From Oscillospiraceae bacterium (GTDB lineage Bacteria; Bacillota; Clostridia; Oscillospirales; JAAYXM01), in contig JAFSIZ010000186.1 of NCBI GenBank assembly GCA_017439555.1, positions 390 through 64,389 of the forward strand: a DNA stretch of 64,000 bases, in the 5' to 3' direction. The position numbers and the translations under genes are program-made. This document shows positions 13,237-37,541 of the stretch, piece by piece. Each line of letters opens with the position of its first letter. The stretch's first letter is position 1. Below the pieces are notes generated by a model, which had not been told where the DNA came from, did not search any database, and worked only from the letters and a program-made list of their open reading frames with translations.

Positions 13237-14049
13237 TTATCCTTCAAACCCATATTCCTTTGCCATTTCCGCAACTGTCTCCGCCCATTCGGGAGATACT
13301 TTTTTCAGGTGATCCATAGCACATTCTCCATTCTCATCCTTTGCATACGGGTCTGCGCCATTTTGCAGCATAAGCTCAAATGTCTCATATGAGTATTTGT
13401 CAAAATCGCGGCAGTATATCCTGATGTATCGCCCTCCTCGAACGTCGCTTCCGCATTCTTCAACCAAATAGCGAATGGCCTCATCATGTCCCCAGTAAAA
13501 TGCTCCGCTTATATTGCCAAAAGAATGAGTATCCGCGCCTGCCTCCACAAGTTCCCTCAATATCTCCATTCCATTCGGCGGAAGGTCATCTTCAAATAAA
13601 AGATAATCTATAGCATTACAACCATATCTCTTACTGTTGGCATCAGCTCCGTTTTCTATTAAGTATTTGACAATACTTAAATTGTCGGCATTTTCGTTCA
13701 CCACAGCATAGCTTAAAGGCGAGATCGCAGCATTCATTGGTGTATAGTTGGCATCAGCCCCGTTTTCAACCAAAACCTTTACCATATCAGCATTCCCTTT
13801 TTCGCAAGCTAACTGTAACGGAGTTCTGCGGTCGTTCTTTTCACAAAAACATTCTATCACAGGAAATCCCAATACAGAATTCGGGTCTCCAAAAAACAAA
13901 GCTACCTTCAGTCGTTGCATATCATCGTTTTCTATTGCTCTTAACATCTGTCCGCAGAAAAATTTCTCTGCATCATAATGTATTTTAAAACACATCAGGA
14001 TTGCAGCTATAACTGATATAACGATTAAAGTGATTTTCTTTCTATCCAA
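13237..14049 (-). CDS. Membrane-anchored ankyrin-repeat protein (paralogue 1)
   Basis: N-terminal TM helix ITLIVISVIAAILMCF. ANK repeats such as TPLQLACEKGNADMVKVLVENGADAN. Conserved tail SPEWAETVAEMAKEYGFEG. TTG start. Confidence 0.8.
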   Translation of the reverse strand: MDRKKITLIVISVIAAILMCFKIHYDAEKFFCGQMLRAIENDDMQRLKVALFFGDPNSVLGFPVIECFCEKNDRRTPLQLACEKGNADMVKVLVENGADANYTPMNAAISPLSYAVVNENADNLSIVKYLIENGADANSKRYGCNAIDYLLFEDDLPPNGMEILRELVEAGADTHSFGNISGAFYWGHDEAIRYLVEECGSDVRGGRYIRIYCRDFDKYSYETFELMLQNGADPYAKDENGECAMDHLKKVSPEWAETVAEMAKEYGFEG

Positions 14050-14269
14050 GATTCAATGACCTCCATATTCTTTGTAGTGGTGTCGTTGTATCATACGGTG
14101 TGTTTCCGTAAATAATCCACGGAAATAAATCTGCTATTCCATGCAAAGCAGGATGCTTGCAAGGCCTTCGAGGAATGCTGCTTCGCCTTTTTGTGTTAAA
14201 ACCTCTTCGCCGCTTGGCAAAGTCATAATTCCCGGCTCGTCGCGTTCCGTTTGTTGTTTCACTTTGTGC
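14042..14269 (-). pseudogene. Remnant of the 3' end of a gene like the 423-aa ORF at 17170-18441
   Basis: The minus-strand translation ...GNYDFA...ALHGIADLFPWIIYGNTPYDTTTPLQRIWRSLNLG* aligns with the C-terminus ...GSYNYA...HGLLDILPWIRYGNTPYDTTTPQQRIGGLFNFG*. It has the same 8-nt overlap with the ankyrin start. An in-frame TAG lies at 14270-14272. Confidence 0.75.
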
Positions 14270-14291
14270 CTATGCGGCTTTTTTGCAAATT

Positions 14292-14963
14292 TCACTTTGT
14301 CGGCATATTCTTATATGCAACAACAAAATTTAAAATATATAATGGAGCAAATAAAGATGATAAAATGCAAAACGATACTATTTCCTTTTCTTTTATCGCA
14401 TCCGGATCCATTGCCAACACAGCAAACTTGCTCGGTTGTGCAGCCCCTAAGGCTACGAATGCAAAAATGATAAAAATCATTGTAACATAGAGAAAGCACT
14501 TTAAAAGAAACGCCATATTGCTGCGGATGACAGACAGAAATGAATTTTTTGCATCCTCTGCAGCATGACACAAAGACAAAACAACAACTCCGCCTATAAG
14601 CCAAAAAGTTAGTAATGTACAAATTTGAATAACCATCTTATCAATACCTTTGTACAAGAAAAAACGATATCCGAAAGAAATAAAAACAAGTATAATTGAC
14701 CGGAGTAAAACGACCGCAATGTATTTTCGGGAGAGTTTCATATGCCTTTCAAGAGCGGATGAAATGAGCAGAGCTGCTGACAGAACAGAAACAAAGCTTA
14801 ATGCAAATGTCAAAATAAACAACAGTATTGCAGAAGCCTCCGATGAAAAAATCCAAAAATTTAAAAACATCGGACAAATTATTAAAAGCGAAAACGGCAA
14901 ATACAACCATATTCTTTTTAAATATATTACCAGCGCATCAGTAAACACTTCTCTTGATTTCAT
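14292..14963 (-). CDS. Polytopic membrane protein (function unknown)
   Basis: 223 aa with about 6 hydrophobic helices, in AT-rich sequence. Confidence 0.5.
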   Translation of the reverse strand: MKSREVFTDALVIYLKRIWLYLPFSLLIICPMFLNFWIFSSEASAILLFILTFALSFVSVLSAALLISSALERHMKLSRKYIAVVLLRSIILVFISFGYRFFLYKGIDKMVIQICTLLTFWLIGGVVVLSLCHAAEDAKNSFLSVIRSNMAFLLKCFLYVTMIFIIFAFVALGAAQPSKFAVLAMDPDAIKEKEIVSFCILSSLFAPLYILNFVVAYKNMPTK

Positions 14964-15106
14964 TACTGCATATGATTAAAACCATCCCCCCGAAGGATGT
15001 TTTAATTTTTCTCCCCTCTTGAATTTTAATAATTCTTCATAGCTTTGCGTATTTCTTCATCACGAATTTTGCTTATAACCTATTGCCTGTCTCCGGGATT
15101 TACAGG

Positions 15107-15919
15107 TTATCCTTCAAACCCATATTCCTTTGCCATTTCCGCAACTGTCTCCGCCCATTCGGGAGACACTTTTTTCAGGTGATCCATGCCGCATACTCCG
15201 TCTTTATTCTTTGCATACGGACTTGCTCCGTGTTGCATCATAAGCTCAAATATCTCATATGAGTATCCGCCAAAACCACGGCAATACAAATACATATACA
15301 AATAATCACTGACTTCCAATCCGCATTCTTCAATTAAGTATTGAATAACCTCATTATTTCCCCAGTAAAATGCTTGATATGAATCTTCAACATTTGCTCC
15401 TGCGTTTACCAGCTCACGCAAGATTTCCATTCCATTTTGAGGAAGTTCTTTGTCGGATAACAACCAGAACAAGGGACTCCTTACCGAATACTTCGAAGGA
15501 TTGACGTCTGCATCGTTTTCAATCAGATATCTGACTATCTCCAAATTCTCTGGGGTGTCATTTTCAACTGCATAATTCAACGCAGGATCAGAGGCGTTCC
15601 ATGAAGTATAATTAACATCTGCCCCGTTTTCAACCAAAACCTTTACCATCTCAAAATCACCTTTTTCGCAAGCTGCTTGCAAAGGTGTCCTTCGATCTGA
15701 TCGCTCCGATAGAACATCAAGCAGCGGAATCCCCAGCGAAGAATTCGGGTCTCCAAAAAACAAAGCTACCTTCAGTCGTTGCATATCATCGTTTTCTATT
15801 GCTTTGAGCATCTGTCCGCAGAAAAATTTTTCTGCCATATTATGCGCTATCATGCCGTGATATATCATTGATATAACCAACGCAACTATCAAACATATTT
15901 TCTTAACTATTTTCATCAC
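15107..15919 (-). CDS. Membrane-anchored ankyrin-repeat protein (paralogue 2)
   Basis: N-terminal TM helix. TPLQAACEKGDFEMVKVLVENGADVN. Tail identical to paralogues 1 and 3. Start is GTG 15919 or ATG 15916. Confidence 0.8.
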   Translation of the reverse strand: MMKIVKKICLIVALVISMIYHGMIAHNMAEKFFCGQMLKAIENDDMQRLKVALFFGDPNSSLGIPLLDVLSERSDRRTPLQAACEKGDFEMVKVLVENGADVNYTSWNASDPALNYAVENDTPENLEIVRYLIENDADVNPSKYSVRSPLFWLLSDKELPQNGMEILRELVNAGANVEDSYQAFYWGNNEVIQYLIEECGLEVSDYLYMYLYCRGFGGYSYEIFELMMQHGASPYAKNKDGVCGMDHLKKVSPEWAETVAEMAKEYGFEG

Positions 15920-16088
15920 GTCTTCCTCTTATCCTCTCTGAAATTGTTGTACTGTCATCAGGGCTGTTCCCATAGAGGTACCAAGGTAACATATCCAGGA
16001 AAAAATGTGAAACAGGACGCCATCTAGGATTGGGAAAATTGTATGTTCCTATATCATCGGGTACTTCAATAATCCAGCTTCCGCTCCG
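15903..16088 (-). pseudogene. Second 3' remnant of a gene like the 423-aa ORF
   Basis: Minus-strand translation SWIIEVPDDIGTYNFPNPRWRPVSHFFLDMLPWYLYGNSPDDSTTISERIRGRRDENS* aligns with ...GQIVYAAEDQGSYNYANPNFWVQHGLLDILPWIRYGNTPYDTTTPQQRIGG.... The 138-bp promoter repeat lies directly upstream of it. Confidence 0.75.
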
Positions 16089-16133
16089 CTACCTTTGACA
16101 CAAAGGGGAGCTTTTAGTGGTTTTGTGCGGTTG

Positions 16134-16271
16134 TTTTTATTATAACATAGTTTTTTATATTTGCAAATCGCGCACTATTTGCAAACACAATGCCGCATTT
16201 GCGCACTCAATGCAGCATTAAAGCGATTATACCACAAATTTATTTTTTGGCACGCCAACTTTTTGCCATCT
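16134..16271 (-). repeat. 138-bp repeat, copy A (promoter/leader module)
   Basis: Identical to 18454-18591 apart from 2 mismatches. Contains TGgTATAAT (extended -10 on the minus strand, 16226-16231) and the ttgcaaat/atttgcaa palindrome. Confidence 0.85.
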
Positions 16272-16352
16272 AAAAAAACAACAACCACCCGAAGGCTTGC
16301 CCTTCGGGTGGTTGTGACGTGCAAACTCTTGCCTGTCTCCGGGATTTACAGG

Positions 16353-17177
16353 TTATCCTTCAAATCCATATTCCTTTGCCATTTCCGCAACTGTCTCCGC
16401 CCATTCGGGAGCAGGACTTTCTTTTAGATAATCAATGGCACATTTTCCATACTCATCCCTTGCATATGGGTCTGCGCCGCGCTTTAGAAAATACTCAAAT
16501 GTTTCACGCGAATATTCAGCGCGACCATAACAATACGCGCAAAGATAAAACTCATCAGATGCATCAAAGCCATATTCTTCGACAAAAAACCTTATCACCT
16601 CTTCGTGTTTCCAGTAACATGCGTTACGAAGATATAACTCTCGTTGCTTGTCTTCCACTTCTTTCATCAGCTCTTTCAGAATTTCCATTCCATTTGGCTC
16701 CAAAGAACGTCTTGCCAAAAAATCTGCTACGATTATCCCATGACCTACACAACACTCATAATTCACATCCGCACCTTGACCCAGAAGATATTTGACGATT
16801 TCCAGATTGTTATTACTTTGACTTTCTGCCGCATATTGTATTGGTGATATGACTGCATTTAATGGCGTATAGTTGACATCAGCCCCTCCTTTCACTAAAA
16901 GCTTCACCATATCTATATTTCCTTTTTTACAAGTTGCCTGCAAAGGGGTTTGCCGAGTACCCGTTTCACCAATAGTTCCTTCAATCCAGGAAATCCCCAA
17001 CACGGAATTCGGATCTCCGAAAAACAAAGCTTCCTTTAACCGTGGTATATCCTCTGTTTCTATTGCGCCAAGCATCTGCTTGCAGAAAAATTTCTCTGCA
17101 TCATAATGTATTTTAAAACACATCAGGATTGCAGCTATAACCGATATAATGGTCAGAACGATTTTATTTTTATCCAA
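16353..17177 (-). CDS. Membrane-anchored ankyrin-repeat protein (paralogue 3)
   Basis: N-terminal TM helix. TPLQATCKKGNIDMVKLLVKGGADVN. Conserved tail. The TTG start overlaps the stop of the upstream 423-aa ORF by 8 nt. Confidence 0.8.
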   Translation of the reverse strand: MDKNKIVLTIISVIAAILMCFKIHYDAEKFFCKQMLGAIETEDIPRLKEALFFGDPNSVLGISWIEGTIGETGTRQTPLQATCKKGNIDMVKLLVKGGADVNYTPLNAVISPIQYAAESQSNNNLEIVKYLLGQGADVNYECCVGHGIIVADFLARRSLEPNGMEILKELMKEVEDKQRELYLRNACYWKHEEVIRFFVEEYGFDASDEFYLCAYCYGRAEYSRETFEYFLKRGADPYARDEYGKCAIDYLKESPAPEWAETVAEMAKEYGFEG

Positions 17178-27296: not shown

Positions 27297-27328
27297 GAAA
27301 ACCGCAACGGATTCCGTTGCGGTTTTTT
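27297..27328 (+). terminator. Intrinsic terminator of the glycolytic operon
   Basis: aaaaccgcaacgg-attc-cgttgcggtttttt. Confidence 0.85.
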
Positions 27329-27396: not shown

Positions 27397-27426
27397 TTGA
27401 CAATAGAGAGTTTGATATGATATCAT
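27397..27426 (+). promoter_or_regulatory. Possible promoter of the Ubl-locus operon
   Basis: TTGACA, 18-nt spacer, TATCAT, about 120 nt upstream of the first ORF of the locus. Confidence 0.35.
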
Positions 27427-27547: not shown

Positions 27548-28432
27548 ATGGATAAACAGAAATTCGCAAGCGATGAAGCTGCGCAGGAGATGACGGATGC
27601 TCAGGAGAGTGCACAGCCGGAAGAAGCTTCGGAAAATCCTGTCACAGAGCCATCGGTTGCGGAAAGCGCAGAGGAAAAGGCAGAGGAAAAGCGTTGCCCG
27701 GTATGTGCCGCGCTTCTTGAGGCCGATGCTGAGTTCTGCACAGAATGCGGCGCAGCTGTAAAACCGAAGTGCAAGGGCTGCGGTGCGACGCTTGAACCGG
27801 GGCAGATGTTCTGCACAGGTTGTGGTATGCAGGTCATACAGCAGGCGCCGCCTGCCGATGCTTCTGCAGTAAGCAGCGGTATAAATGAGTATAACAGCAA
27901 AATCGGCAAAAAGAGCAAGGCGAAGATTATAATACCTGCAATAATTGTTGCAGTGTTGTTGATTTTCGGTGCTGTCGGCGGATATATTGCTCACGTCGAG
28001 CGGATTCATCAGCAGGTGCTTGAGTTTACAGAGGATGTTATGGATTATACGGCGGAAGTAAACTCGGCAACAGTGGTTCTCAAGAACATAAGCGAGGCGT
28101 GGGATATCGTTGATAAAAGCTCCTATCTCTACAGAAGCGAGCTCAGAACCTATGCAAGAAACCTTTATAAGGATAACATCAGCGATGCAAAGGATGTAAA
28201 TGATGGAATCGTCGATAAATATAACGATATTATGAGCTGTGATATCGAAGATCCATATGTCGAGAGGATTCAGGATGCTGTGGAAAAAACTCACGATCTG
28301 TATCTTGTCATTTATGAGGATGTAATTGAGAATGAGTCGGGCGGAAATGAAGATAACGCAGACAAAGTCATTGAGTATATAGCAGACGTAAAAGCTGTTG
28401 TTGATGAAGCAACGCTTGATTATGCAAGTTAA
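27548..28432 (+). CDS. Double zinc-ribbon, TM, extracytoplasmic helical-domain protein
   Basis: CPVCAALL...FCTECG and CKGCGATL...FCTGCG. TM helix IIIPAIIVAVLLIFGAVGGYI. ATG 27548 is preferred over GTG 27536. Confidence 0.6.
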   Translation: MDKQKFASDEAAQEMTDAQESAQPEEASENPVTEPSVAESAEEKAEEKRCPVCAALLEADAEFCTECGAAVKPKCKGCGATLEPGQMFCTGCGMQVIQQAPPADASAVSSGINEYNSKIGKKSKAKIIIPAIIVAVLLIFGAVGGYIAHVERIHQQVLEFTEDVMDYTAEVNSATVVLKNISEAWDIVDKSSYLYRSELRTYARNLYKDNISDAKDVNDGIVDKYNDIMSCDIEDPYVERIQDAVEKTHDLYLVIYEDVIENESGGNEDNADKVIEYIADVKAVVDEATLDYAS

Positions 28433-28450
28433 TAAAAGGGGGAAATAAAA

Positions 28451-29242
28451 ATGGACAACAAGTTATTACAGGAAATTGAAGCTTCTTTGAAAAACAGTGC
28501 AGCGCCTGCGGAGCCTGTAGCACCTGCAGAGCCCGTAGCACCTGCAGAGCCCGCAGCACCTGCAGAACCCATAGCACCTGCGGAACCCGTAGCACCTGCG
28601 ACACCGGTCAAGAGATGCCCGAAGTGTCAGGCTGTTATCGAAGAGGGACAGATATTCTGTGCAGAATGCGGAGAAGCCCTCGTGAAGAGATGTGCTCAGT
28701 GTGGGGCAGAGCTTGCGGAAGCTCAGGCATTTTGCGCACAGTGCGGCACGCGTGTCGCAGCAGCGCCCGTTGCGCCCAACCCTGTCTATAGCGCTCCTGC
28801 CGGAAATGCTCCGTTTGCAACGGATTCTGTTCCGAAGCCGCAGGGCGTGGACAAAAAGCTCCTTCCGCTGATAGCGATAGGCGTCTGTGCTGTTATTGTT
28901 GTAGTTATACTTGCAAAGACCCTCTTTGCAGGGCCTGCGGATTTTGAAACCCTTTATGCTGACAGATACGGCGCAGAGTCGTGGTGCGAAATCTCGTCTG
29001 ACGGCTCCTGGATGGAGATTGATACAAACCCGAATGACATTGATGACTATTACAGCTCATCTGCGCTCGATGCTGTTGAAACCGTCAACGAGGAGCTCGG
29101 TTTCTCGAGCTCGGTATATGAGAAGATGATGGAGACAAGGGCTCTTGACGGAAGACAGTATGATGAATGCGAAGACTATGAAATCAGCTGGTCCTACCAT
29201 CCGAACAGAGGTATGGACGTTATGTATGAGCTCAAAGATTAA
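28451..29242 (+). CDS. PAEPxA-repeat, double zinc-ribbon, TM, extracytoplasmic-domain protein
   Basis: (A/V)APAEP repeated 6 times. CPKCQAVI...FCAECG and CAQCGAEL...FCAQCG. TM helix LLPLIAIGVCAVIVVVILA. Confidence 0.6.
   Translation: MDNKLLQEIEASLKNSAAPAEPVAPAEPVAPAEPAAPAEPIAPAEPVAPATPVKRCPKCQAVIEEGQIFCAECGEALVKRCAQCGAELAEAQAFCAQCGTRVAAAPVAPNPVYSAPAGNAPFATDSVPKPQGVDKKLLPLIAIGVCAVIVVVILAKTLFAGPADFETLYADRYGAESWCEISSDGSWMEIDTNPNDIDDYYSSSALDAVETVNEELGFSSSVYEKMMETRALDGRQYDECEDYEISWSYHPNRGMDVMYELKD
28502..28606 (+). repeat. Coding tandem repeat, 18 bp x about 6 (APAEPV)
   Basis: Units of gcacctgcagagcccgta with synonymous or near-synonymous variation. Confidence 0.85.
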
Positions 29243-29260
29243 TGATTGGAGGAAATAGAA

Positions 29261-29887
29261 ATGACAATTAAAAGAATTGCTGCATTTATTCTCGCACTTG
29301 TTATGGTATTTACGCTTACGGGCTGCAAAAGCTCTGATTACAAGAAGGCTATGGCTCTCTTTGATGAAGGAAACTTCTCTGAGGCACAAGCGGCTTTTGA
29401 AGCTCTCGGAGATTATAAGGACAGTCTGAGCTATGCGGAAAATATCGGTTGGTATGCAGTGCGTGCACACATTCTTGAAAACGGCAAAATAGAATATGAA
29501 GCGACGGAAACTCTTATGCTCGAAATCGATATGATGGGCGATGATGTTATCGTAATCAGGGAATATATGGATGAAGATATTATGAAGTTCAATATTCAGG
29601 CGGAGCTCTCTCTTGGGGAAACGGTCGTTCCTTATAAGGCTGATATAGAGCTGATCATCGAAGGTGCAAGCGGAAAAGAAGCAGGAGTCGGAAAGCTTGA
29701 TATAGCGTCCTATAAAGAAGGCGATTCGATCAAGTGGGACAACTCGACCTGCTCACCGTATGAAGATCTTATAATTCTCAAGGATTTCTCAGGCCCGACA
29801 AAGACCTTTGTCGAAAATACAAAAAAGGCCATCGAGGCGGCCGGAATCAACATCACAATGGCAGAATTCGGATTTGAAAGCTATTGA
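29261..29887 (+). CDS. Lipoprotein; paralogue of the extracytoplasmic part of the Ubl-fusion ORF
   Basis: Signal peptide with lipobox FTLTGC. Blocks shared with 29920: F(E/D)xGN/EY..A...FE.LGDYKDS and the C-terminal ITMAEFGFESY versus ITLADFGFVSFE. GGAGG RBS before ATG 29261. Confidence 0.65.
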   Translation: MTIKRIAAFILALVMVFTLTGCKSSDYKKAMALFDEGNFSEAQAAFEALGDYKDSLSYAENIGWYAVRAHILENGKIEYEATETLMLEIDMMGDDVIVIREYMDEDIMKFNIQAELSLGETVVPYKADIELIIEGASGKEAGVGKLDIASYKEGDSIKWDNSTCSPYEDLIILKDFSGPTKTFVENTKKAIEAAGINITMAEFGFESY

Positions 29888-29919
29888 TAAAAAATTATAT
29901 GTTAAGGAGAATATGAAAA

Positions 29920-30936
29920 ATGGGAAAAGTAAGTGTAATTATCGTTGATGCAACAGGAAACAAGGAACAGAAGGTCGGCCTTCCGGACGATATCAAAATC
30001 GGAATCATTATGGTCAAGCTCGTCGAGAAGATAAAGCTTCCGTCCACAGGACCTGACGGCAACCCGATAAGCTATAAGTTTATCCACAAGGTCTCGGGGC
30101 GCCAGCTTCTCGAAACACAGACTCTTGCTGATGCAGGAATCAAGGACGGCGATGTTCTCAGACTTCAGCCTGAGATAACCGCTGGTGCAATCGGCAGAGC
30201 GCGAGGTGCGGTTTCGCGTTTTTTTAAGAAGGCCGCAGCTCTTGCGATTGCAGGTGTTATGCTGATTTCGCTCTGCGGCTGTGATATGCTCGATTATGGC
30301 AAAGCAAAAAAGCTCTATGAAAAGGGCGAATATAAAGAGGCTGTGACGATCTTTGAGAATCTCGGCGATTATAAGGACAGCGCAGACTATCTCAAAAAAG
30401 CGCGAGTCGAATGGTTCAAGGAATATGCCGAGGAAAACGGCGATGAAATAGGAGACGACAAGCGCATTACAAAAAGCTATAAAGGTGACAAAAACGACAC
30501 TTATATAGTTGCAATGGGTTCTGAGGGCGATATGATAGAGTTTGTAATTTTTGTCGACAAGGATCTTGAATTTGTTGAGTTTACCGACTTTATAAAGATA
30601 CACTTCAAGCCCGGCGCTTCGGAGGCAGACTTTACATATGACAGCACAATGACGATTGATTATAAAAATATTTCTGCAGAAAGCGAGAGTACCACGACGG
30701 GGGTTATCGATATTGCAAACTACACAAACTCCACAGTTGTAGAAGCGCTTACGTATGAGTATGAAGGCGTTGATGTCTCCGGCAATAAATCCAGTGAGAG
30801 CGGCGCTGAAAACGCAAAGATGACCGACTTCAACGACATCTACATAGATAATCTCTTTAACGGCTGTAAGGAAATTCTTGCAGAAACAGGTATGGGAATA
30901 ACTCTTGCTGATTTCGGCTTCGTTTCCTTCGAATAA
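29920..30936 (+). CDS. Ubiquitin-like (beta-grasp) domain fused to a TM/lipoprotein-signal-like segment and an extracytoplasmic domain
   Basis: Residues 1-89 end in QTLADAGIKDGDVLRLQPEITAG, a ubiquitin-like C-terminal strand with a terminal Gly. A basic stretch and ALAIAGVMLISLCGC follow, then a domain paralogous to the 29261 lipoprotein. AAGGAGA RBS. Confidence 0.65.
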   Translation: MGKVSVIIVDATGNKEQKVGLPDDIKIGIIMVKLVEKIKLPSTGPDGNPISYKFIHKVSGRQLLETQTLADAGIKDGDVLRLQPEITAGAIGRARGAVSRFFKKAAALAIAGVMLISLCGCDMLDYGKAKKLYEKGEYKEAVTIFENLGDYKDSADYLKKARVEWFKEYAEENGDEIGDDKRITKSYKGDKNDTYIVAMGSEGDMIEFVIFVDKDLEFVEFTDFIKIHFKPGASEADFTYDSTMTIDYKNISAESESTTTGVIDIANYTNSTVVEALTYEYEGVDVSGNKSSESGAENAKMTDFNDIYIDNLFNGCKEILAETGMGITLADFGFVSFE

Positions 30937-30965
30937 AACGTTTCTGCTTCGGAAGGTGATGAAGA

Positions 30966-32153
30966 ATGTCAATGGATATCGAATTTGAAAAGAATGATTT
31001 TGAAGAAAACCGATATTCCCGTCTTGAGCTGATTCCCTGGTGGAATCAGGAGCTTCTGCACAACTCGACTGTTATGGTAGTCGGTGCCGGGGCGATAGGA
31101 AACGAGCTTATAAAGAACCTTGCTTTGCTCGGTGTCGGAAAAATCGTTATTGTCGATATGGATAAAATTGAGCAGACAAATCTGACGCGCTCGATACTTT
31201 ACCGTATGAAGGATGTCGGCAAATACAAATCAGAGGCTGCGGCGCAATCTGCGATGGAAATAAACCCGGATGTGCGCGCAATATGCCTCAACAGCAACAT
31301 CGTGACGGATATAGGTCTTGGAGTGTTCAGGCAGATGGACGTTGTTCTGGGCGGCCTTGATAACCGTGAGGCGCGCCTTGCAATCAATCAATCGTGCTAT
31401 AAGGTGAACAAGCCGTGGATAGACGGCGCGATAGAAGTTCTCAACGGCTTTGCAAGAGTCTTTGTGCCGCCGGGGCCGTGTTATGAATGCACGATGACGG
31501 AGACTGACTGGAGGCTCATCAACAAGCGCAAATCGTGCGCGTTGCTGACTCACGACCAGATGCTTGAGGGGAAGACCCCGACAACTCCGACATCCTCGTC
31601 GGTTATTGCCGGCATACAGGTGCAGGAGATGCTCAAGCTTCTCCACAATGACAGAAATCTGCCGACGCTTGCCGGAAAGGGCTATGTGTTCAACGGGCTC
31701 ACCCACGATTCATTCGTTGTTGAGTATCAGCAAAAGGAAGATTGTATGAGCCACGACCTCTATGAGGATATACGTGAGATGCCGTGGTCAGCGCGCACAG
31801 TTTCGTTTGGTGACATCATAGAAGAGGCATCGCGTGAGCTTGGTGGATCGGTTGTCATAGAGCTTGACCGCGATATTGCGACGACGGCGACCTGCGTTTG
31901 CGGCCACAAAAAAGACATTTTCAACACGGTAAACCGCCTGCGCGGCAAGGACATAGTTTGCGAGAAATGCGGAAAGTCCATGCAGTTTGAGGCAATACAC
32001 ACGGTGACGGCGGATTCCGATTTCCTTGGCAGAAAGCTTTTTGATGTCGGTCTTCCGCTATATCACATAATCGCTGTGCGCAAAGGTATGAAATATATTT
32101 ATTATGAATTGTCCGCAGACAAGGACGAGGTTTTGGGAGGTCTGTTTGAATGA
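30966..32153 (+). CDS. ThiF/MoeB-type E1-like adenylyltransferase
   Basis: Rossmann/ATP motif VMVVGAGAIGNELIKNLALLGVGKIVIVDMDKIEQTNLTRS. CYEC and C..CEKCG cysteine pairs. Candidate catalytic Cys in KRKSCALL. Confidence 0.8.
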   Translation: MSMDIEFEKNDFEENRYSRLELIPWWNQELLHNSTVMVVGAGAIGNELIKNLALLGVGKIVIVDMDKIEQTNLTRSILYRMKDVGKYKSEAAAQSAMEINPDVRAICLNSNIVTDIGLGVFRQMDVVLGGLDNREARLAINQSCYKVNKPWIDGAIEVLNGFARVFVPPGPCYECTMTETDWRLINKRKSCALLTHDQMLEGKTPTTPTSSSVIAGIQVQEMLKLLHNDRNLPTLAGKGYVFNGLTHDSFVVEYQQKEDCMSHDLYEDIREMPWSARTVSFGDIIEEASRELGGSVVIELDRDIATTATCVCGHKKDIFNTVNRLRGKDIVCEKCGKSMQFEAIHTVTADSDFLGRKLFDVGLPLYHIIAVRKGMKYIYYELSADKDEVLGGLFE

Positions 32154-34180
32154 ATGCAAGAATGAGGAGAATCGCCTCTGACTACGAACAGATTAAAAAG
32201 AATTTTTCAAACCATAAAAACATTGTTGTTGAGCCTATCGGCGAAGAGCCTGCAGAGAAATACAGAGTTACATATTATGTAAACGGCATATATCTTCTCG
32301 ATGACGGCAGGATAGAAACTCTCGGAAAGCACATTGTTATAATAACGCTCCACGCGGAGTATCCGAGATACAAGCCGATATGCACAATAGCAACGCCGAT
32401 CTGGCATCCGAATTTCAGGGATGGGCAGATATGCATCGGAGATATATGGGGTGCAGGTGAATCCCTTTCCGATATTATCGTCAACATCGGCGATATGATT
32501 CAGTATAAGAGCTGGAATTCCTTCAGCCCGCTTTCGGCAGATGCCGCAGAATGGGCGATTGAGAACAAGCATCTCTTCCCTGTTGGAAACATAAATCTCT
32601 GGACGGGTGAGGAAGAGGACGGCACGGTCAAGGGCGATTTCGATATCGATATCTTCGATGGCGAAGACGCAGCAGAAGAGGCGGCTCCTGCAGAAGAAAC
32701 GGCGCCTGTTGAAGATGCCGTGCCGGCTGAAGAAGCTGCTCCTATTGAGGAGGCTGCGCCGGCTGAAGAAAACTTCAAGGAAACTCAGGCAAACGTCAAC
32801 GCAGCTCAGGGTGGAGATGTAAACGTTTCAGATTCCGGAAAGCTGAAGGAGGAGAGCCCGGCCTCGATTTCGGCGGTGTCATCTGCTCCGGCGGAGAAAG
32901 GTGACGAAGAGGATTTTGAGATAACCGCAGAGGAGCTTGCAGGAATAGAGTTTGTTCCGAGCGTTGTAAGAATGCAGGGCAGCCAATACGGAGCAACGGC
33001 AAAGGGCGGAAAGATAAATTTAAAGACTGTGCTTGTCAAGGGTCTGCTCTGGGCTCTCATAGGCGCATTCCTCGGCTTTGTTGTTTCTGAGATTGCAAAT
33101 CCGCTGATCGGCAATGCTGCCGTTGCGAGAATGCTCGGTCATTCAGAGCTTGCGGATTATTATGAATACACTGAGCTTGCGGATGAGGCTATTGCACCTG
33201 TAAACCGCGCGTTTGCCGATTATTGCAACAGAACAGGCAAGAATCCGAACAGTGAGGGCGTGCTCGAGGATTGGCTTGAGGCAAATTCCTCTGCCTATTC
33301 CGGCGCTATAGATCTCTATTCTGACTATGACGACAAGGCAGACGAAGCTCTTTATAATGCATATGAAGATGACTTTGCCTCGAATGAGGATGCACTCGGA
33401 GACGCTCTGGCCGGAATATCGAGAACGCACACAGCTCTCTGGTCGGGGATAATAGCTCTCTTTATAGGGCTCTTCCTCGGAATTGGTGAGGGTGTATACT
33501 ATGGCTCAAAGGAAAACGCGCTGAAATATGCGCTTATCGGCGCAGGTATCTCGATTGCTGTCGGCGCAGTGAGCGGATATCTCGCACAGTGGATGTATGC
33601 ATCTATGCTTTCGGATTATTCGTCAAGCATTGCTTCTGCGTTTGTGCGCGGTCTCGGATGGGCGATAATGGGCGCAGGCATTGGCTTGTCTATAGGTCTT
33701 ATCAAGCCTGAGCAGAAGAGAATCCTTTTCTGCACGCTCGGCGGCGTTATCGGTGCATTTATCGGCGGATTCCTGTTCAACTATGTCTGCGATATCATAC
33801 CCAATGACATAGTTGCCCGCGGAATTGCGATAATCATCATGGGGCTTCTTATCGGTGTCGGCGTCGGTATGCTTGAGCAGTTTGCAAAGGCGGCGTGGCT
33901 CAAGGTCATCAGAGGCGAATTTGAAGGTAAGGAATATCTTGTATTTGAGGGCAGAACATCAATCGGTAACAGCGGCAAGAACACAATTGTTCTCTTTAAA
34001 GACAAGCTTGTTGCTCCCGATCATTGTGAAATTGTTCAGGAAGGCACTAAATATGTTCTCGTTGACAAGGGCTCACCGATGGGAACTGTTGTCAACGGAA
34101 TGAGAATAACACGTCACGTTCTGCGTCAGGGCGATGCAATTGCAATAGGCAATTCAGTGCTCGTATTCAATATGAAATAA
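32150..34180 (+). CDS. E2 (UBC-like) domain, acidic PAEE linker, polytopic membrane region, C-terminal FHA domain
   Basis: RRIASDYEQIKK, EYPRYKP and IWHPNFRDGQIC(95)IGDIW give the HPN-x6-Cys E2 signature, with the Cys codon at 32432-32434. Several long hydrophobic helices lie at about 33040-33900. The FHA pattern is GRTSIGNS...APDHCEI...YVLVDKGSPMGTVVNG...L..GD.I.IG. ATGA overlap with the E1 gene. Confidence 0.75.
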   Translation: MNARMRRIASDYEQIKKNFSNHKNIVVEPIGEEPAEKYRVTYYVNGIYLLDDGRIETLGKHIVIITLHAEYPRYKPICTIATPIWHPNFRDGQICIGDIWGAGESLSDIIVNIGDMIQYKSWNSFSPLSADAAEWAIENKHLFPVGNINLWTGEEEDGTVKGDFDIDIFDGEDAAEEAAPAEETAPVEDAVPAEEAAPIEEAAPAEENFKETQANVNAAQGGDVNVSDSGKLKEESPASISAVSSAPAEKGDEEDFEITAEELAGIEFVPSVVRMQGSQYGATAKGGKINLKTVLVKGLLWALIGAFLGFVVSEIANPLIGNAAVARMLGHSELADYYEYTELADEAIAPVNRAFADYCNRTGKNPNSEGVLEDWLEANSSAYSGAIDLYSDYDDKADEALYNAYEDDFASNEDALGDALAGISRTHTALWSGIIALFIGLFLGIGEGVYYGSKENALKYALIGAGISIAVGAVSGYLAQWMYASMLSDYSSSIASAFVRGLGWAIMGAGIGLSIGLIKPEQKRILFCTLGGVIGAFIGGFLFNYVCDIIPNDIVARGIAIIIMGLLIGVGVGMLEQFAKAAWLKVIRGEFEGKEYLVFEGRTSIGNSGKNTIVLFKDKLVAPDHCEIVQEGTKYVLVDKGSPMGTVVNGMRITRHVLRQGDAIAIGNSVLVFNMK

Positions 34181-34301
34181 AAGCGGCGAAGGCAAAATAC
34201 AGATAGTATAATCAACAACGAAAGGGGGACAGTGTTACGCGTAAGCCAAAACACTGTCTCTCTGTCCGTTTTCACAAAAAGAAGGCAAGGAGTGAAACAG
34301 A

Positions 34302-35180
34302 TTGAGCAACCTGAGAAAAAAGGGCAGCAAGAAGAAAAAGGCCGTAAGCCGTGAGCTTTTGCCTGAGCTGCCGCAGAATATTTTCCCTGTAGGCGAGCGT
34401 GTTCTTGATAACAAAAACATATACATTCATCAGAAGGTCTATGCGCAGATTCATAAATTTGCTTCCAACAAAACGGAAAATGAGCACGGCGGAATTCTTG
34501 TCGGCCGTGTGGTCAATGAGATGGGCAAGGAAAACACAATAATAGAGGCGTTTATTGAGGCAAAATATAATGCCGCAACGCCGACAACATTGACCTTCAC
34601 TCACGAGACGTGGGAGCATTTCCATTCTGAAATGGACAAGAAATATAAAGACAGGAAAATCGTCGGATGGATACACACACATCCGAACTTCGGTATATTC
34701 CTTTCAGAAAACGACAGATTCATCCAGCAGAACTTTTTCACGGATGTAAATCAGGTCGCATATGTAGTTGACCCGATACAGAACGACGAAGGCTTTTTCT
34801 TCTGGGTTGACGGGCGGCTTGAGCGTTGCCCGGGATTTTATCTGTTCGATAAGGTCGGAATCAAGATAAGACAAAAGGCAATCTGGGAGAAGGGCTCTGA
34901 CGATGAGAATGAAGGCGGCGAAAAATCGTTTGGTACCGGAATACTTATCCCGATTCTCCTCGCTCTGATTGTTCTGGCAAATATGGTGCTTACGATAAAT
35001 CAGAATTCAAGGATGAACAGGCTTGCGCAAAAGCTTGCTCAGGCAGAGCAGGTCATCCAGAGCCAGATAATTATGATCAACGGCCTGAGAGAGCAGGTCT
35101 ATGAGCTTGAAGGCTATCATATGCCTGAGCCTCAGGAGGAGACAACGGAAAATACTGAAAAAGATTCAGAGAAGAAATAG
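34302..35180 (+). CDS. JAB/MPN (JAMM) metallopeptidase with C-terminal TM helix and coiled coil
   Basis: Glu in EAFIEAKY plus HTHPNFGIFLSEND gives a complete E...HxHx7Sx2D JAMM motif. TM helix GILIPILLALIVLANMVLTI. TTG start with an AAGGAG RBS. Confidence 0.78.
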   Translation: MSNLRKKGSKKKKAVSRELLPELPQNIFPVGERVLDNKNIYIHQKVYAQIHKFASNKTENEHGGILVGRVVNEMGKENTIIEAFIEAKYNAATPTTLTFTHETWEHFHSEMDKKYKDRKIVGWIHTHPNFGIFLSENDRFIQQNFFTDVNQVAYVVDPIQNDEGFFFWVDGRLERCPGFYLFDKVGIKIRQKAIWEKGSDDENEGGEKSFGTGILIPILLALIVLANMVLTINQNSRMNRLAQKLAQAEQVIQSQIIMINGLREQVYELEGYHMPEPQEETTENTEKDSEKK

Positions 35181-35193
35181 GAGGAGCGCAGAT

Positions 35194-36057
35194 ATGGATT
35201 ATACAGGAAAAATTTGCCCCTATTGCCAGACGGAATTCCGCGAAGGTGACGATATTGTCGTGTGCAGTGTATGCGAAATGCCTCACCATAAGGAATGCTG
35301 GATTGAAAACAAGGCCTGCACAACCTTTGGCTGCACAGGAACGATAAAGGGCGTTGACCAGAGCACAGAGGCGGCGATAAATGAGACGGAATGTGTAAGC
35401 TGCGGTGCAAAAATGAAGGCAGGGCAAAAGTTCTGTTCGAAATGCGGAGCGGCGGCAAGCAGCGGCGGGCCAAGATTTCAGGCGGCAGGAGCAAATATGC
35501 AGCAACCGTATGCAAATCAGCAGCCATACGCAAATCAGCAACCGTATGCAAATCAGCAGCCATACGCAAATCAGCAGCCGTATGCAAATCAGCAGCCGAT
35601 ATACGGACAGATGTGTGCTAAATATGATGCAAATGACCCGGTTATGATTGCGTTTCTTGAAAAGAATATAATGCAATACGTAAACATCTTCAATAATCTT
35701 GAGGCGAAAAACTCAAAGACATCCTGGAACTGGTGTGCATTTCTTTTTGGAGCAAACTGGTTTGCATATAGAAGGATGTATCCGCTCGCGGCAGCGATTA
35801 TCGGCGTTTCCTTTGTTCTCACTCTCTTCGGAGAGGTTGGAACTTTCCTGAGCCTGGCGATGTCTGTATGTCTTGGGATTTTCGGAAACTTTCTTTACAA
35901 GCAGCACATTGATGTTGAAAAACAGGCTTGTGCAGGTTTTGATGATGCAGGAAAAAGCGCTCATATAGCAAAGAAGGGCGGAGTAAGCGTGGTTTCGGTT
36001 GTTGTTATGTGCATCATTACATTCGTTCTGAATATGTTTTTTACAACTGTCGGGTGA
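35194..36057 (+). CDS. C4HC3 RING/PHD-like zinc finger, zinc ribbon, (QQPYAN)n linker, DUF2628-like multi-TM domain
   Basis: C-x2-C-x12-C-x2-C-x4-H-x2-C-x6-C-x4-C within KICPYCQTEFREGDDIVVCSVCEMPHHKECWIENKACTTFGC (nt 35215-35334). CVSCGAKM...FCSKCG zinc ribbon. WNWCAFLFGANWFAYRRMY is DUF2628-like. AGGAGG RBS before ATG 35194. Confidence 0.65.
   Translation: MDYTGKICPYCQTEFREGDDIVVCSVCEMPHHKECWIENKACTTFGCTGTIKGVDQSTEAAINETECVSCGAKMKAGQKFCSKCGAAASSGGPRFQAAGANMQQPYANQQPYANQQPYANQQPYANQQPYANQQPIYGQMCAKYDANDPVMIAFLEKNIMQYVNIFNNLEAKNSKTSWNWCAFLFGANWFAYRRMYPLAAAIIGVSFVLTLFGEVGTFLSLAMSVCLGIFGNFLYKQHIDVEKQACAGFDDAGKSAHIAKKGGVSVVSVVVMCIITFVLNMFFTTVG
35500..35600 (+). repeat. Coding tandem repeat, 18 bp x about 5.5 (QQPYAN)
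   Basis: cagca(a/g)cc(g/a)ta(t/c)gcaaat units. Confidence 0.85.
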
Positions 36058-36063
36058 TAGGTG

Positions 36064-36834
36064 ATGGAAGATTTCAACATTGAAATAATCGACAGCGGAG
36101 CGGCTTCGGCTACAAGGCCGCTTCCGTTGCCGAAGAATTTCGTGGCTGTTGGCGACGCCGGCGGAGATAGTGCGCAGATATATATAAAACAGGATGTCTA
36201 CAAGAGGATAGAAAAATTTGCAAAGGAGCAGATGTCCAAAGAGGTCGGGTCTGTTCTTGTCGGAGAATATGCCGTTGTCGGCGGCAGGAATACGGTTATC
36301 ATTTCCGATTTCATAGAGGCGAAATATACCGATGCCACAGCCGCGACGCTCACATTCACACACGATACCTGGGATTATATCAACCGTGAGCTTGAGACAA
36401 ACTATCAGGGTAAGGTGATAGTCGGCTGGCAGCACACACATCCCGGCTACGGCGTTTTTCTGTCGAGCTATGATATGTTCATTCAGGAAAATTTCTTCAA
36501 TCTTCCGTGGCAGATTGCATATGTTGTTGACCCGATTGCGGATACGAGGGGGTTTTTCGAATGGAAGGACGGAAAGGTCGTTCCGTCGGGCGGCTTTTTC
36601 GTGTATGACGCAATAGGCCGCAGGATAGACATTGATAAGCCTGTGAGCCTGCAAGGAAAAGGCTTTTCGAAGCTGAGCGTTATTCTTGCAATTCTGCTTG
36701 CGCTGTCTCTTATCGCAATGATATGGCTGACTGTCGAAAACGGAATTCTCAGGAACTATCACCATTCGATAGAACGCATTGAACAGGATCTCGAGGAGCG
36801 GGATCTGCCCATAAGAACAGATGACCTGATTTAG
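36064..36834 (+). CDS. Second JAB/MPN (JAMM) metallopeptidase with C-terminal TM helix
   Basis: EAKY Glu plus HTHPGYGVFLSSYD gives a complete JAMM motif. TM helix LSVILAILLALSLIAMIWLTV. Start is ATG 36064 or GTG 36061. Confidence 0.78.
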   Translation: MEDFNIEIIDSGAASATRPLPLPKNFVAVGDAGGDSAQIYIKQDVYKRIEKFAKEQMSKEVGSVLVGEYAVVGGRNTVIISDFIEAKYTDATAATLTFTHDTWDYINRELETNYQGKVIVGWQHTHPGYGVFLSSYDMFIQENFFNLPWQIAYVVDPIADTRGFFEWKDGKVVPSGGFFVYDAIGRRIDIDKPVSLQGKGFSKLSVILAILLALSLIAMIWLTVENGILRNYHHSIERIEQDLEERDLPIRTDDLI

Positions 36835-36848
36835 CTTTGAATAACAAA

Positions 36849-36886
36849 AGAAACCTGCGATCAAGCTGCATTTGCAGGTTTTTCTG
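36849..36886 (+). terminator. Probable terminator closing the Ubl locus
   Basis: aaacctgc (36851-36858) pairs with gcaggttt (36874-36881), followed by ttttc. Confidence 0.55.
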
Positions 36887-36995
36887 TTTGCTTTTTTTCT
36901 TGAAGGTGATATAATACAAGAGCAGAGTGAAATGATTTTATAACAGCTGAATACGGAAATATAAAAGCTTTGATATCGGAAAGGAGCTACAAACA

Positions 36996-37541
36996 ATGTA
37001 TGAAGAAATAAAAACAGCCCTGCGCACTGCGGCGGAGGAGCTTTGCGAAAATGCGAAGCTGAAGGCAGGCGATATCGTCGCAATCGGATGCTCAACGAGC
37101 GAGGTAATGGGCGAAAAAATCGGAACAAGCTCTGTTGCGGAGCTTGGCGCGGCAATCTATAGTGCGCTCAGCGAGGTTTTCTCGGCAAAGGGAATCTATA
37201 TCGCGGCGCAGTGCTGTGAGCATTTAAACCGTGCGCTCATCATCGAGCGCGAAGCAGTCCCCGGCGCATATGTCTGCAACGCAGTTCCCCAGCCGAAGGC
37301 AGGCGGCTCTTTTGCAACGGCGGCATACGCCGCAATGCGTGATCCGGTCGCAGTCGAAAGAGTTGTTGCTGATGCAGGAATGGACATCGGCGACACTCTT
37401 ATAGGAATGCACGTCAGACCCGTTGTTGTTCCGTGCAGGCTTTCAATCAGGAGCATAGGAGAAGCGCATCTCGTTTGCGCAAGAAGCCGCGCAAAATTCA
37501 TAGGCGGCGAGCGCGCACACTATGACAAGGATTTGATGTAG
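36996..37541 (+). CDS. TIGR01440 / UPF0340 (YwlG-like) family protein
   Basis: 181 aa. ...GDIVAIGCSTSEVMGEKIG...IYIAAQCCEHLNRALIIERE... matches this family as I recall it. Confidence 0.62.
   Translation: MYEEIKTALRTAAEELCENAKLKAGDIVAIGCSTSEVMGEKIGTSSVAELGAAIYSALSEVFSAKGIYIAAQCCEHLNRALIIEREAVPGAYVCNAVPQPKAGGSFATAAYAAMRDPVAVERVVADAGMDIGDTLIGMHVRPVVVPCRLSIRSIGEAHLVCARSRAKFIGGERAHYDKDLM

Follow-up and report, generated by a model that had tools for sequence, protein, structure and literature searches.

A conserved locus in Clostridia predicted to encode a membrane-embedded ubiquitin-like conjugation pathway

Introduction

The conjugation systems for ubiquitin-like proteins (Ubls) characterised in bacteria so far are the soluble anti-phage systems Bil and type II CBASS, together with Bub, which has been studied biochemically. 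In 2011 Burroughs, Iyer and Aravind reportedly defined prokaryotic RING families and predicted computationally that YukD-like Ubls are conjugated by E1/E2/RING/JAB systems. Bacterial operons that include a RING have been predicted but are uncharacterised (PMC10557695, PMC11601596, PMC5654768), and full-text literature searches returned no experimental paper on an E2 joined to transmembrane (TM) helices and an FHA domain, or on a Prok-RING_1 system. Here we describe a locus of this kind from an Oscillospiraceae bacterium, comprising nine co-directional open reading frames (ORFs) at 27548-36834 on the plus strand of a 64,000-nucleotide stretch which we call the window (assembly GCA_017439555.1, contig JAFSIZ010000186.1, positions 390 to 64,389). 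The locus is a real, conserved and experimentally unexplored membrane-embedded variant of the bacterial Ubl conjugation systems.

Among characterised systems, the one closest in its set of components and in the structure of its Ubl is the Caldiarchaeum operon, with its rare soluble bacterial counterparts. That operon encodes ubiquitin, an E1, an E2, a small RING protein and an Rpn11-like JAB peptidase, and has been reconstituted in vitro (PMC5654768); the same five component classes stand in one operon in the window. The likeness extends to the modelled structure of the Ubl, to an E2 with an HPN...Cys arrangement, to an E1 with a single adenylation domain that is nearer to Uba1 than to ThiF, and to the JAMM-type processing to be expected of the Ubl precursor. 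In contrast to the Caldiarchaeum type, all window components but the E1 are membrane-anchored, the E2 is polytopic with an FHA domain, two JABs are present, and the finger is of a C4HC3, Prok-RING_1-DUF2628 kind, while across the family the Ubl ends in AG instead of GG, is YukD-like in sequence, and has extracytoplasmic protease, LysM and lipoprotein partners. An operon of Crinalium epipsammum, by comparison, is soluble, encodes an E2 28% identical to that of the window, and adjoins conjugation genes. It lies on the mobilizable plasmid pCRI9333.03 (our locus L081, 38825-42302) and consists of a ThiF protein, two small Ubl paralogues, an E2 and an MPN peptidase next to a type IV coupling-protein gene; one of its Ubls ends in ...AEGGY and the other lacks GG.

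Bil (BilABCD) shares with the locus a Ubl, a Cys-dependent E2, a JAB and an E1, thioester chemistry and precursor processing, and structural comparison of the window Ubl ranked BilA near the top. Bil is, however, soluble, has no RING, FHA or membrane parts, and its E1 has an IAD-AAD-CYS architecture, whereas the window E1 is a single 395-aa domain. PADLOC found no BilA, BilB or BilC match in the window and only a partial BilD match (1.3e-8, on the Rossmann core), and on the lack of BilA/B/C profile matches and the single adenylation domain of the E1 we rejected identity with Bil. Bub (6E/DUF6527) is likewise a bacterial operon with an E1, an E2, a Ubl and a peptidase, but its E1 and E2 lack catalytic cysteines and follow an oxyester route, and its peptidase is the DUF6527 serine protease BubE (PMC11601596). 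Identity with Bub was rejected as well, given that Cys95 of the E2 and Cys191 of the E1 are invariant in the window family, the peptidases are of JAMM type and Pfam returned no DUF6527 match. Type II CBASS Cap2/Cap3 combines an E1-E2 fusion with a CD-NTase and an effector and has no Ubl; the window has separate E1 and E2 genes and a Ubl, and no nucleotidyltransferase recurred in the neighbourhoods of 80 related loci (described below), which ruled out this assignment too.

Results

Components of the predicted pathway

The nine ORFs, numbered g1 to g9 in order, all lay where the original prediction, made from the sequence alone, had placed them. Its inventory of a Ubl, an E1, a UBC-type E2, a RING-like finger and two JAMM peptidases was borne out, with Pfam support for every assignment. 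The features that make up the core of the locus are as follows.

29920-30186, plus strand: Ubl domain (residues 1-89) of g4, beta-grasp fold, C-terminus ...LRLQPEITAG
30187-30936, plus strand: C-terminal extension of the Ubl precursor, with a basic stretch, a hydrophobic helix, an LCGC lipobox-like site and a g3-like extracytoplasmic domain
30966-32153, plus strand: E1, a single ThiF-type adenylation domain with a Cys-rich C-terminal domain
32150-32599, plus strand: UBC-fold domain of the E2 (residues 1-150), HPN at 86-88, catalytic Cys95 at 32432-32434
32636-32659, plus strand: acidic-hydrophobic motif DFDIDIFD directly after the UBC domain
33020-33889, plus strand: polytopic membrane domain of the E2, with TM1, a variable outside loop of ~110 aa and five glycine-zipper-rich helices
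33902-34177, plus strand: FHA-fold domain of the E2 (residues 585-676), cytoplasmic, FHA 9.2e-13
34302-35180, plus strand: JAB1, a cytoplasmic JAMM peptidase with one TM helix and a coiled-coil-like tail, TTG start after AAGGAG
35194-36057, plus strand: g8, with a C4HC3 Prok-RING_1 finger (35194-35334), a Zn-ribbon, a (QQPYAN)5 linker and a DUF2628 membrane domain, candidate E3
36064-36834, plus strand: JAB2, with an N-terminal DFNIEI motif, a cytoplasmic JAMM peptidase domain and one TM helix

From sequence comparison and structural models we read the locus as a ubiquitin-type conjugation and deconjugation pathway on the cytoplasmic face of the membrane, with covalent conjugation as its core function, at a probability of roughly 0.7. 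A hydropathy scan placed TM segments in every product but the E1, in agreement with the earlier claim that all other components are membrane-anchored. The most coherent topology has the Ubl, UBC, FHA, JAB, RING and Zn-ribbon domains in the cytoplasm and the C-terminal domains of g1-g4 outside; the protease, LysM, Big_2 and lipoprotein domains found across the family are likewise predicted to be extracytoplasmic.

The Ubl and its precursor

Residues 1-89 of g4 matched YukD in Pfam (2.5e-12). Their AlphaFold2 (AF2) model (predicted local distance difference test, pLDDT, 88.6) had Caldiarchaeum ubiquitin as its top Foldseek match (6fno, 6fnn, 6fj7; E 7e-7, TM-score 0.70), followed by BilA (8tyx, 8tyz), ubiquitin, SUMO and NEDD8, and the domain, proposed from its letters to be ubiquitin-like, thus passed the fold check. 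Caldiarchaeum ubiquitin was also the best match by sequence, but not at a significant level.

Conservation of the Ubl was very high, with 79-97% identity across the best 120 of 600 clusters and with lysines 15, 33, 37 and 53 invariant. Its C-terminus, ...PEITAG, ending at G89, was invariant in 71 loci, after which came a stop in 11, a tail of 1-10 aa in 46 and a membrane-protein extension of 107-318 aa in 14, so that the Ubl is free or carries only a short tail in 57 of the 71. A Zn-ribbon opens twelve of the long extensions, and a lipoprotein-type signal the other two. The variable sequence after an invariant G89 would mark this residue as the site of processing and activation, and a fixed C-terminal Gly followed by disposable sequence reads as the signature of ubiquitin and Ubl precursors that need deubiquitinase processing. 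The comparative data establish G89 only as the fixed end of the Ubl; that cleavage takes place after it is what we infer.

In the window G89 is followed by AIGRARGAVSRFFKK, then by a hydrophobic helix (TM at residues 106-124 in the hydropathy scan) and then by LCGC. The C-terminal part of g4 is paralogous to g3 (27% identity, E 6e-16), with both lipoboxes aligned. The earlier claim that the Ubl is made as part of a membrane-anchored precursor is supported.

Cleavage after G89 would also expose, at 30187-30300, a textbook lipoprotein signal peptide of basic stretch, hydrophobic helix and LCGC, and removal of the Ubl could on this view gate export or maturation of the fused lipoprotein. The same arrangement of Ubl and lipoprotein signal is shared by loci L012 and L021.

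The E1 and E2 enzymes

The E1 (395 aa) is the sole soluble component. It matched the ThiF profile at 2.1e-54 and carries VVGAGAIGNEL...DMD, confirming the nucleotide motif read earlier in the 30966 ORF, with the GxGxxG, DxD, NLxR and DNxxxR motifs conserved. Its best matches among PDB sequences were the active adenylation domains of eukaryotic Uba1 (3e-30), ahead of ThiF and MoeB (1e-20 to 6e-18). Residues C172/C175, C191, C260/H263 and C310/C312/C332/C335 were invariant in 72 sequences. Cys191 (31536-31538) is probably the catalytic residue, a candidate whose crossover-loop position is suggested by its spacing after the first CxxC, and the other Cys sites are probable Zn ligands.

The N-terminal domain of the E2 matched UQ_con (1.1e-6, 28.7 bits) and, by phmmer, eukaryotic E2s (4e-6), with C95 aligned on the catalytic Cys of E2-C. 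An AF2 model of residues 1-177, in which most of the first 80 residues had a pLDDT of ~87-91, matched 307 PDB chains in Foldseek at E<=1e-3 (best 6.6e-6). Among the 50 matches listed, all were UBC E2s or complexes of them; Ube2g2 came top, with other E2s scoring almost equally. Residues H86, P87, N88 and C95 were conserved in 79/79 homologues, and both the fold of the model and this HPN...C95 signature uphold the identification of the 32150 ORF as a UBC-type E2.

The fusion of this E2 to a polytopic membrane domain of ~6 TM helices and to an FHA domain, which had also been proposed, agrees with the profile match of the latter and with the hydropathy scan, which gave five TM segments; the sixth, a Gly-rich helix near residues 497-517, was read by eye. 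The glycines of the GxxxG and GxGxG motifs in the membrane domain are conserved, and median identity is 69% over TM2-6 against 31% in the outside loop. Repeats of 18 nt or 36 nt encode the linker of the E2 (32672-32771) and also that of the accessory protein g2 (28501-28599).

The JAB peptidases and the RING-like protein

Both JABs contain HTHP...S..D and keep the JAMM metal site E...HxH...S..D, as read earlier in the ORFs at 34302 and 36064. JAB1 (profile JAB, 7.8e-12; TM at 214-232) has E61, H125, H127 and the S/D motif conserved in 48 sequences. In JAB2 (JAB, 7e-7) residues E60, H124 and H126 are conserved, and the JAMM motif is kept in 51 homologues. Homologues of JAB2 are of 320-465 aa and bear an extracytoplasmic C-terminal LysM domain (7.4e-10) that the window JAB2 lacks.

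Matches of g8 were to Prok-RING_1 (4.8e-15), DUF2628 (7.9e-8) and a Zn-ribbon. The cross-brace pattern predicted at the start of this ORF is present, with the spacing C-x2-C-x12-C-x2-C-x3-HH-x2-C-x6-C-x4-C, and its nine Cys/His ligands are 99% conserved in 74 sequences. The (QQPYAN)n linker is encoded by an 18-nt tandem repeat (35500-35598) with 5.5 copies in the window and 8 on contig JAZPZX010000149.1 of assembly GCA_045544915.1 (L083 6045-6962), a contig whose E2 is 100% identical to that of the window; this difference in copy number is strain-level or assembly-level variation.

Recurrence in related genomes

At 90% identity, proteins that combine E2, TM helices and FHA domain make up at least 786 clusters; each of the 120 listed has the three Pfam domains in common. 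A genome scan with the E2 gave 80 loci, so that the operon type is present in no fewer than 80 species, mostly from Oscillospiraceae, Acutalibacteraceae, Lachnospiraceae, Christensenellaceae, Clostridium, Tissierella and Massiliimalia, with single loci in metagenome-assembled genomes labelled Synergistaceae, Roseiflexaceae and Muribaculaceae. Cultured carriers include Massiliimalia massiliensis, Clostridium weizhouense, Clostridium sp. LS, Tissierella creatinini and the Lachnospiraceae strains MC2017 and LC2019. In tblastn of the window proteins against these 80 loci all matches fell on one and the same strand; the E1 was found in 78 loci, the Ubl in 71, the JABs in 72 and the RING protein in 66. 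Such recurrence excludes chance, and the check on co-conservation of the gene set was thereby strongly positive. Gene order was nearly always shared, although the RING gene is sometimes upstream. Given the size of the family, and since Pfam already has Prok-RING_1, the earlier claim of novelty stands as regards distinctness from Bil and Bub, which we confirm, but overstated uniqueness.

Clustering of the 1,255 ORFs of these neighbourhoods recovered the E2 in 76 loci, a group of Zn-ribbon, RING and Ubl-fusion proteins in 73, the E1 in 71 and the JABs in 63 (94 proteins). Further recurrent families were a Trypsin_2 protease (57 loci), an XRE-type helix-turn-helix (HTH) protein (22) and an M78 ImmA/IrrE-like peptidase (20); no other family recurred among the 1,255 ORFs. 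Median identity to the window proteins was 67% for the E1, 62% for the E2, 44% for the JABs and 32% for the RING protein. Flanking genes were not conserved (enolase in 0/80 loci, DUF436 in 1/80).

The window operon is a reduced variant of the family, without the trypsin-like protease that 57/80 loci have and without the LysM domain on JAB2. In most loci the protease gene (Trypsin_2, 1e-29) sits between those of the E2 and JAB1, and its product has a signal peptide and a His/Asp/Ser triad and, towards the C-terminus, a TM helix before a tail that is cytoplasmic and rich in Lys. It is in these same loci that JAB2 ends in the LysM domain. No remnant of it was detected in the window by tblastn.

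In 20-22 of the 80 loci the genes for the XRE-type HTH protein and the M78 peptidase stand directly upstream (for example L001 5271-6542, L005 6444-7184 and L008 4839-5309); the window is without the pair. The M78 peptidase has a TM helix and a C-terminal Cys cluster, and the two may be a stress-responsive regulator pair.

The FHA domain

In an alignment with GarA, the Arg, Ser and Asn that contact phosphothreonine are replaced by N, A and M in the window E2. Across 79 homologues these positions hold N in 76, G or A in 70 and M in 65, and never R at the first or N at the third. A Ser/Thr kinase was ruled out as a conserved operon partner, a Hanks-kinase motif being found near only 1/80 loci. 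The claim that the E2 is coupled to phospho-Thr binding through its FHA domain was therefore not upheld, the canonical triad being replaced family-wide.

The FHA domain is nevertheless as conserved as the UBC domain (median identity 80% vs 81%), and such strong conservation points to a conserved partner. It is more probable that the degenerate domain binds a protein or the Ubl than that it reads phosphothreonine. In type VIIb secretion of B. subtilis, assembly requires YukD, whose non-covalent partners are the FHA domains of YukB (PMC12637312), which makes Ubl binding a reasonable candidate function for the FHA domain here by analogy.

A distant member of the E2 clade, P0296 (838 aa; 43% identity in the UBC domain), unites an E2, Cys-rich Zn fingers, an FHA domain and a Ser/Thr kinase domain in a single protein. 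Its FHA domain keeps GR, SRRH and the Asn at the third position (SVN). P0296 is a different wiring of a related E2 to phospho-signalling, and phospho-coupling may be ancestral and have been lost in E2s of the window type.

A shared short motif

The motif that follows the UBC domain, DF[D/E]I[D/E]I or in wider form D[F/V][D/E]I[D/E][I/L], recurs at the C-terminal end of the protease in 52/59 sequences, at the N-terminal end of JAB2 in 24/54 and, by a strict pattern, after the UBC domain of the E2 in 23/79, compared with 5/745 other ORFs. JAB2 of the window begins MMEDFNIEII (36064-36100), and repeats of a similar kind close a soluble E2 that is a distant member of this clade. The alternating acidic and hydrophobic residues fit a single docking beta-strand, and the motif probably serves as such a strand for one common partner, be it the Ubl, the FHA domain or the E1. 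It bears what we take to be a resemblance to SUMO-interaction motifs.

Accessory proteins, boundaries and other window genes

The remaining features of the locus are the following.

27300-27328, plus strand: intrinsic terminator of the upstream enolase gene, 5' boundary of the locus, a perfect 15-bp stem followed by a T-run
27397-27426, plus strand: promoter-like site ahead of ORF 1, TTGACA, an 18-nt spacer and an extended -10 TG-TATCAT
27548-28432, plus strand: g1, a cytoplasmic double Zn-ribbon, one TM helix (127-145) and an acidic extracytoplasmic domain
28451-29242, plus strand: g2, an (APAEPV)n linker, a double Zn-ribbon, one TM helix (137-155) and an extracytoplasmic C-domain
29261-29887, plus strand: g3, a predicted lipoprotein, signal peptide with an LTGC lipobox and a GDYKDS-type helical repeat
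34223-34263, plus strand: stem-loop in the 121-nt gap between the E2 and JAB1 genes (-25.7 kcal/mol, z -4.96)
36849-36884, plus strand: terminator-like hairpin followed by a T-rich tract, 3' boundary of the locus

The first two ORFs matched Zn-ribbon families (g1: Zn_Ribbon_1 5.5e-10, DZR 2.6e-8; g2: DZR 8.9e-11) and are paralogous over their Zn-ribbon parts, with tblastn matches in 40/80 loci for g1 and 44/80 for g2. The C-domain of g2 (~100 aa, conserved, ...WSYHPNRGMDVMYE) is also present in other loci, immediately ahead of the Ubl and often preceded by a Prok-RING_1 finger, and in many loci the upstream Zn-ribbon proteins have a second Prok-RING_1 finger or Big_2 or DUF5780 ectodomains. 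The public gene call for g3 is 208 aa.

Gaps between successive ORFs were 18, 18, 32 and 29 nt, then a 4-nt ATGA overlap (the E1 ends at 32153 and the E2 starts at 32150), then 121 and 13 nt, the second 18-nt gap being counted on the assumption that ORF 3 starts at the ATG at 29261. The spacing of 13-33 nt read earlier is right for most gaps, as are the single gap of 121 nt and the ATGA overlap, but the gap between ORF 8 and ORF 9 is only 3-6 nt. The two hairpins said to bound the locus are both present, the eno terminator strong (-21.7 kcal/mol, z -5.75) and the 3' hairpin weak (-15.6 kcal/mol, z -2.3, 11-nt loop). The promoter-like site agrees with the consensus at 11/12 positions, the best in the region, and is a consensus match only. 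The strong stem-loop at 34223-34263 is placed exactly where most related loci have the trypsin-like protease gene; it may serve as an internal attenuator or in mRNA stability, or may be the scar of a deletion. Rfam gave no match at E<=0.1 over the locus on either strand.

Upstream lies a run of ORFs ending in enolase which, from their N-termini only, resembles a glycolytic cluster pgk-tpi-gpmI-eno, and downstream an unrelated DUF436 gene. Two long ORFs run antisense to the locus on the minus strand, one at 29902-30972 (356 aa) over the Ubl precursor and one at 35713-37155 (480 aa) over the RING and JAB2 genes. Similar antisense ORFs recur in related loci, and their translations are of low complexity and rich in Cys and Arg. 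We rejected both as genes; they are most likely non-coding shadows of the conserved plus-strand genes.

Elsewhere in the window, a minus-strand gene at 60243-63803 codes for a protein of 1,186 aa that has a TIR domain at its N-terminus (TIR_2 2.6e-13; ThsB_TIR 5.7e-10) and a long uncharacterised C-terminal part, followed by a gene for a 587-aa multi-TM protein with no Pfam match. The TIR protein is possibly a defence gene, unlinked to the Ubl locus. Three paralogous genes of ~270 aa, also on the minus strand (13237-17177), occupy the stretch of lowest GC in the window (0.385-0.424); ankyrin repeats (Ank 7e-20) and, at the N-terminus, a TM helix were found in the product of 13237-14049, whose two paralogues share its N-terminal sequence.

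Discussion

If the components act as their domains suggest, the 89-residue Ubl would be released from its precursor, here a fusion to a lipoprotein-like membrane protein, when a membrane-anchored JAMM peptidase cuts after Gly89. The soluble E1 would adenylate Gly89 and take over the Ubl as a thioester, probably on Cys191, from where it would be passed to Cys95 of the UBC domain in the membrane-held E2. The C4HC3 finger in the membrane could then serve as a RING-type adaptor which directs transfer to cytoplasmic lysines of membrane proteins, the most plausible targets being the locus's own proteins of Zn-ribbon, TM helix and ectodomain and, in full-size loci, the Lys-rich tail of the protease. 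The JABs would also reverse the modification.

Several points weigh against this reading. The C-terminal domain of the E1 (residues 262-395) had no significant match in a profile search of PDB sequences, and a UFD-type E2-recruiting domain in the E1 is at most putative. The UQ_con score of the E2 is barely above the Pfam gathering score (28.7 vs 27 bits), and confidence in the E2 model is moderate (mean pLDDT 67), falling to ~59-63 over the active-site residues 81-100. The finger of g8 had no significant match among PDB sequences, with weak PHD matches only (E 0.2-0.7), so its assignment as a RING rests on one Pfam family together with gene context. The Ubl ends in Ala-Gly, not Gly-Gly, and the named member of its Pfam family, YukD of B. 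subtilis, is not conjugated and acts non-covalently (PMC1779556, PMC12637312).

The weakest step concerns the biological output, for which control of envelope-facing proteins is our tentative proposal, held at a little under even odds. We favor it because cytoplasmic enzymes appear wired to an ectoprotease, LysM domains, lipoproteins and Ig-like ectodomains, with a modifier constrained in the manner of ubiquitin. The layout also recalls eukaryotic RING-CH ligases of the MARCH/Doa10 type, which work with the membrane-anchored E2 Ubc6 or with Ube2g2, an E2 of endoplasmic-reticulum-associated degradation (ERAD). Like these, the locus has an N-terminal C4HC3 finger followed by TM helices, an E2 held in the membrane, and presumed substrates that are cytoplasmic tails of membrane proteins. 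The likeness is one of layout and not a demonstrated homology of the fingers; the locus has no proteasome or Cdc48, and the bacterial E2 is polytopic where the eukaryotic one is tail-anchored. Taken further, it would amount to membrane-protein ubiquitination in gut Clostridia, in which the polytopic E2 and the C4HC3 ligase tag Zn-ribbon sensors and the ectoprotease, events at the wall or surface are coupled to reversible tagging, and the phospho-blind FHA domain and DFxIxI motifs act as receptors for the Ubl or other partners. We regard this fuller picture as possible, though on balance doubtful.

The alternative that survives best grants the locus the same biochemistry with a role in anti-phage defence, either by tagging phage proteins at the membrane as phages enter or assemble, or with the glycine-zipper domain of the E2 as an abortive-infection effector. 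The HTH and M78 pair directly upstream in about a quarter of the loci, which presumably resembles the CapH/CapP regulators of defence operons, would suit such a role, as would the TM helices rich in GxxxG motifs, the lack of conserved flanks and the position of the window copy between housekeeping genes. The only characterised bacterial E1/E2/JAB systems are, moreover, defence systems (PMC10557695, PMC11601596). PADLOC, on the other side, gave generic E1-E2 and JAB domain matches only and none for the Ubl, E2 or RING proteins, and it recognised the locus as no known defence system. A search of 50,697 phage records with the E2 found no copy; IMG/VR held nothing by protein search and one unrelated 24% match by alignment; and plasmids gave distant partial matches only, none spanning the whole protein. 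Purifying selection on the Ubl, UBC and FHA domains is very strong across families, whereas many defence systems have specificity parts that evolve fast, and the extracytoplasmic trypsin-like protease and the LysM domain point at the cell's own envelope. We consider a defence role unlikely, if still a serious candidate.

In a second alternative the Ubl is a non-covalent structural adaptor of the YukD/EsaB kind, binding the FHA domain and organising a complex in the membrane, with E1, E2 and JABs vestigial or otherwise used. YukD is the best Pfam match of the Ubl, NCBI names its relatives 'EsaB/YukD family', and in type VIIb secretion, too, the Ubl has a membrane partner with an FHA domain, to which YukD binds as described above. 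A domain that has lost the phosphothreonine-contacting residues and is yet 80% conserved fits a protein partner such as the Ubl. YukD, in contrast to the window Ubl with its invariant processable C-terminal Gly, has no E1, E2 or JAB partners. Against the adaptor reading, no homologue of the E1, the E2 or either JAB has lost a catalytic residue, the invariant Gly is followed by variable tails that need removal, and in structure the Ubl is nearest to conjugated ubiquitins. No EssC/YukB (FtsK-type ATPase), EssB/YukC or WXG100 gene recurred in the 80 neighbourhoods, and type VII secretion was rejected as an identity for the locus. This alternative is improbable as a full account, although FHA binding and covalent conjugation are compatible and it may describe part of the mechanism.

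Very improbable, in our view, is a third possibility, that the Ubl is a cis-acting N-terminal module, a chaperone for folding or insertion or a gate for export, which the JABs remove and which is never conjugated to other proteins. Ubiquitin itself serves as an N-terminal fusion for the ribosomal proteins L40 and S27a. In its favour, the sequence after the window Ubl resembles a lipoprotein signal and leads into a g3-like ectodomain, a cut behind G89 would leave an N-terminus of the typical basic, hydrophobic and lipobox kind, and 14/71 other loci fuse the Ubl to Zn-ribbon-TM proteins or lipoproteins. The 57 loci of 71 in which the Ubl has no tail or 1-10 aa make fusion optional, however, and the E1 and Cys-active E2 that are always present would be without a role.

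A ThiS/MoaD-like sulphur-carrier or cofactor pathway among membrane-protein genes, suggested by the ThiF and MoeB models that the E1 also matches, is effectively refuted by gene content: a partner of the rhodanese, ThiG/ThiH or MoaE kind appeared neither in Pfam searches of the window proteins nor in the 80 neighbourhoods, and the E2, RING-like finger and two JABs are strictly co-conserved. For none of the nine locus proteins did an NCBIfam equivalog pass its cut-off, the ThiF and MoeB scores falling far short (e.g. 131.8 vs 275 bits), and the E1 is closer to Uba1.

Covalent conjugation at the membrane is thus the reading we retain. The locus family stands apart from the characterised bacterial systems in being built into the membrane with eukaryote-like thioester residues, a RING-type finger, two deubiquitinase-like peptidases and a modifier constrained about as tightly as ubiquitin, and it is common in abundant gut and rumen Clostridia. 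Were the membrane-ubiquitination picture true, it would give bacteria a counterpart to ubiquitination of the MARCH/ERAD type and would, for the first time, link a bacterial Ubl cascade to a role at the envelope. If the locus conjugates its Ubl, it would offer a tractable bacterial model of membrane-associated ubiquitination, including precursor processing, the pairing of E2 and E3 in the bilayer and the reversible tagging of membrane proteins, and it bears on how much of the logic of the eukaryotic ubiquitin system existed in prokaryotes.

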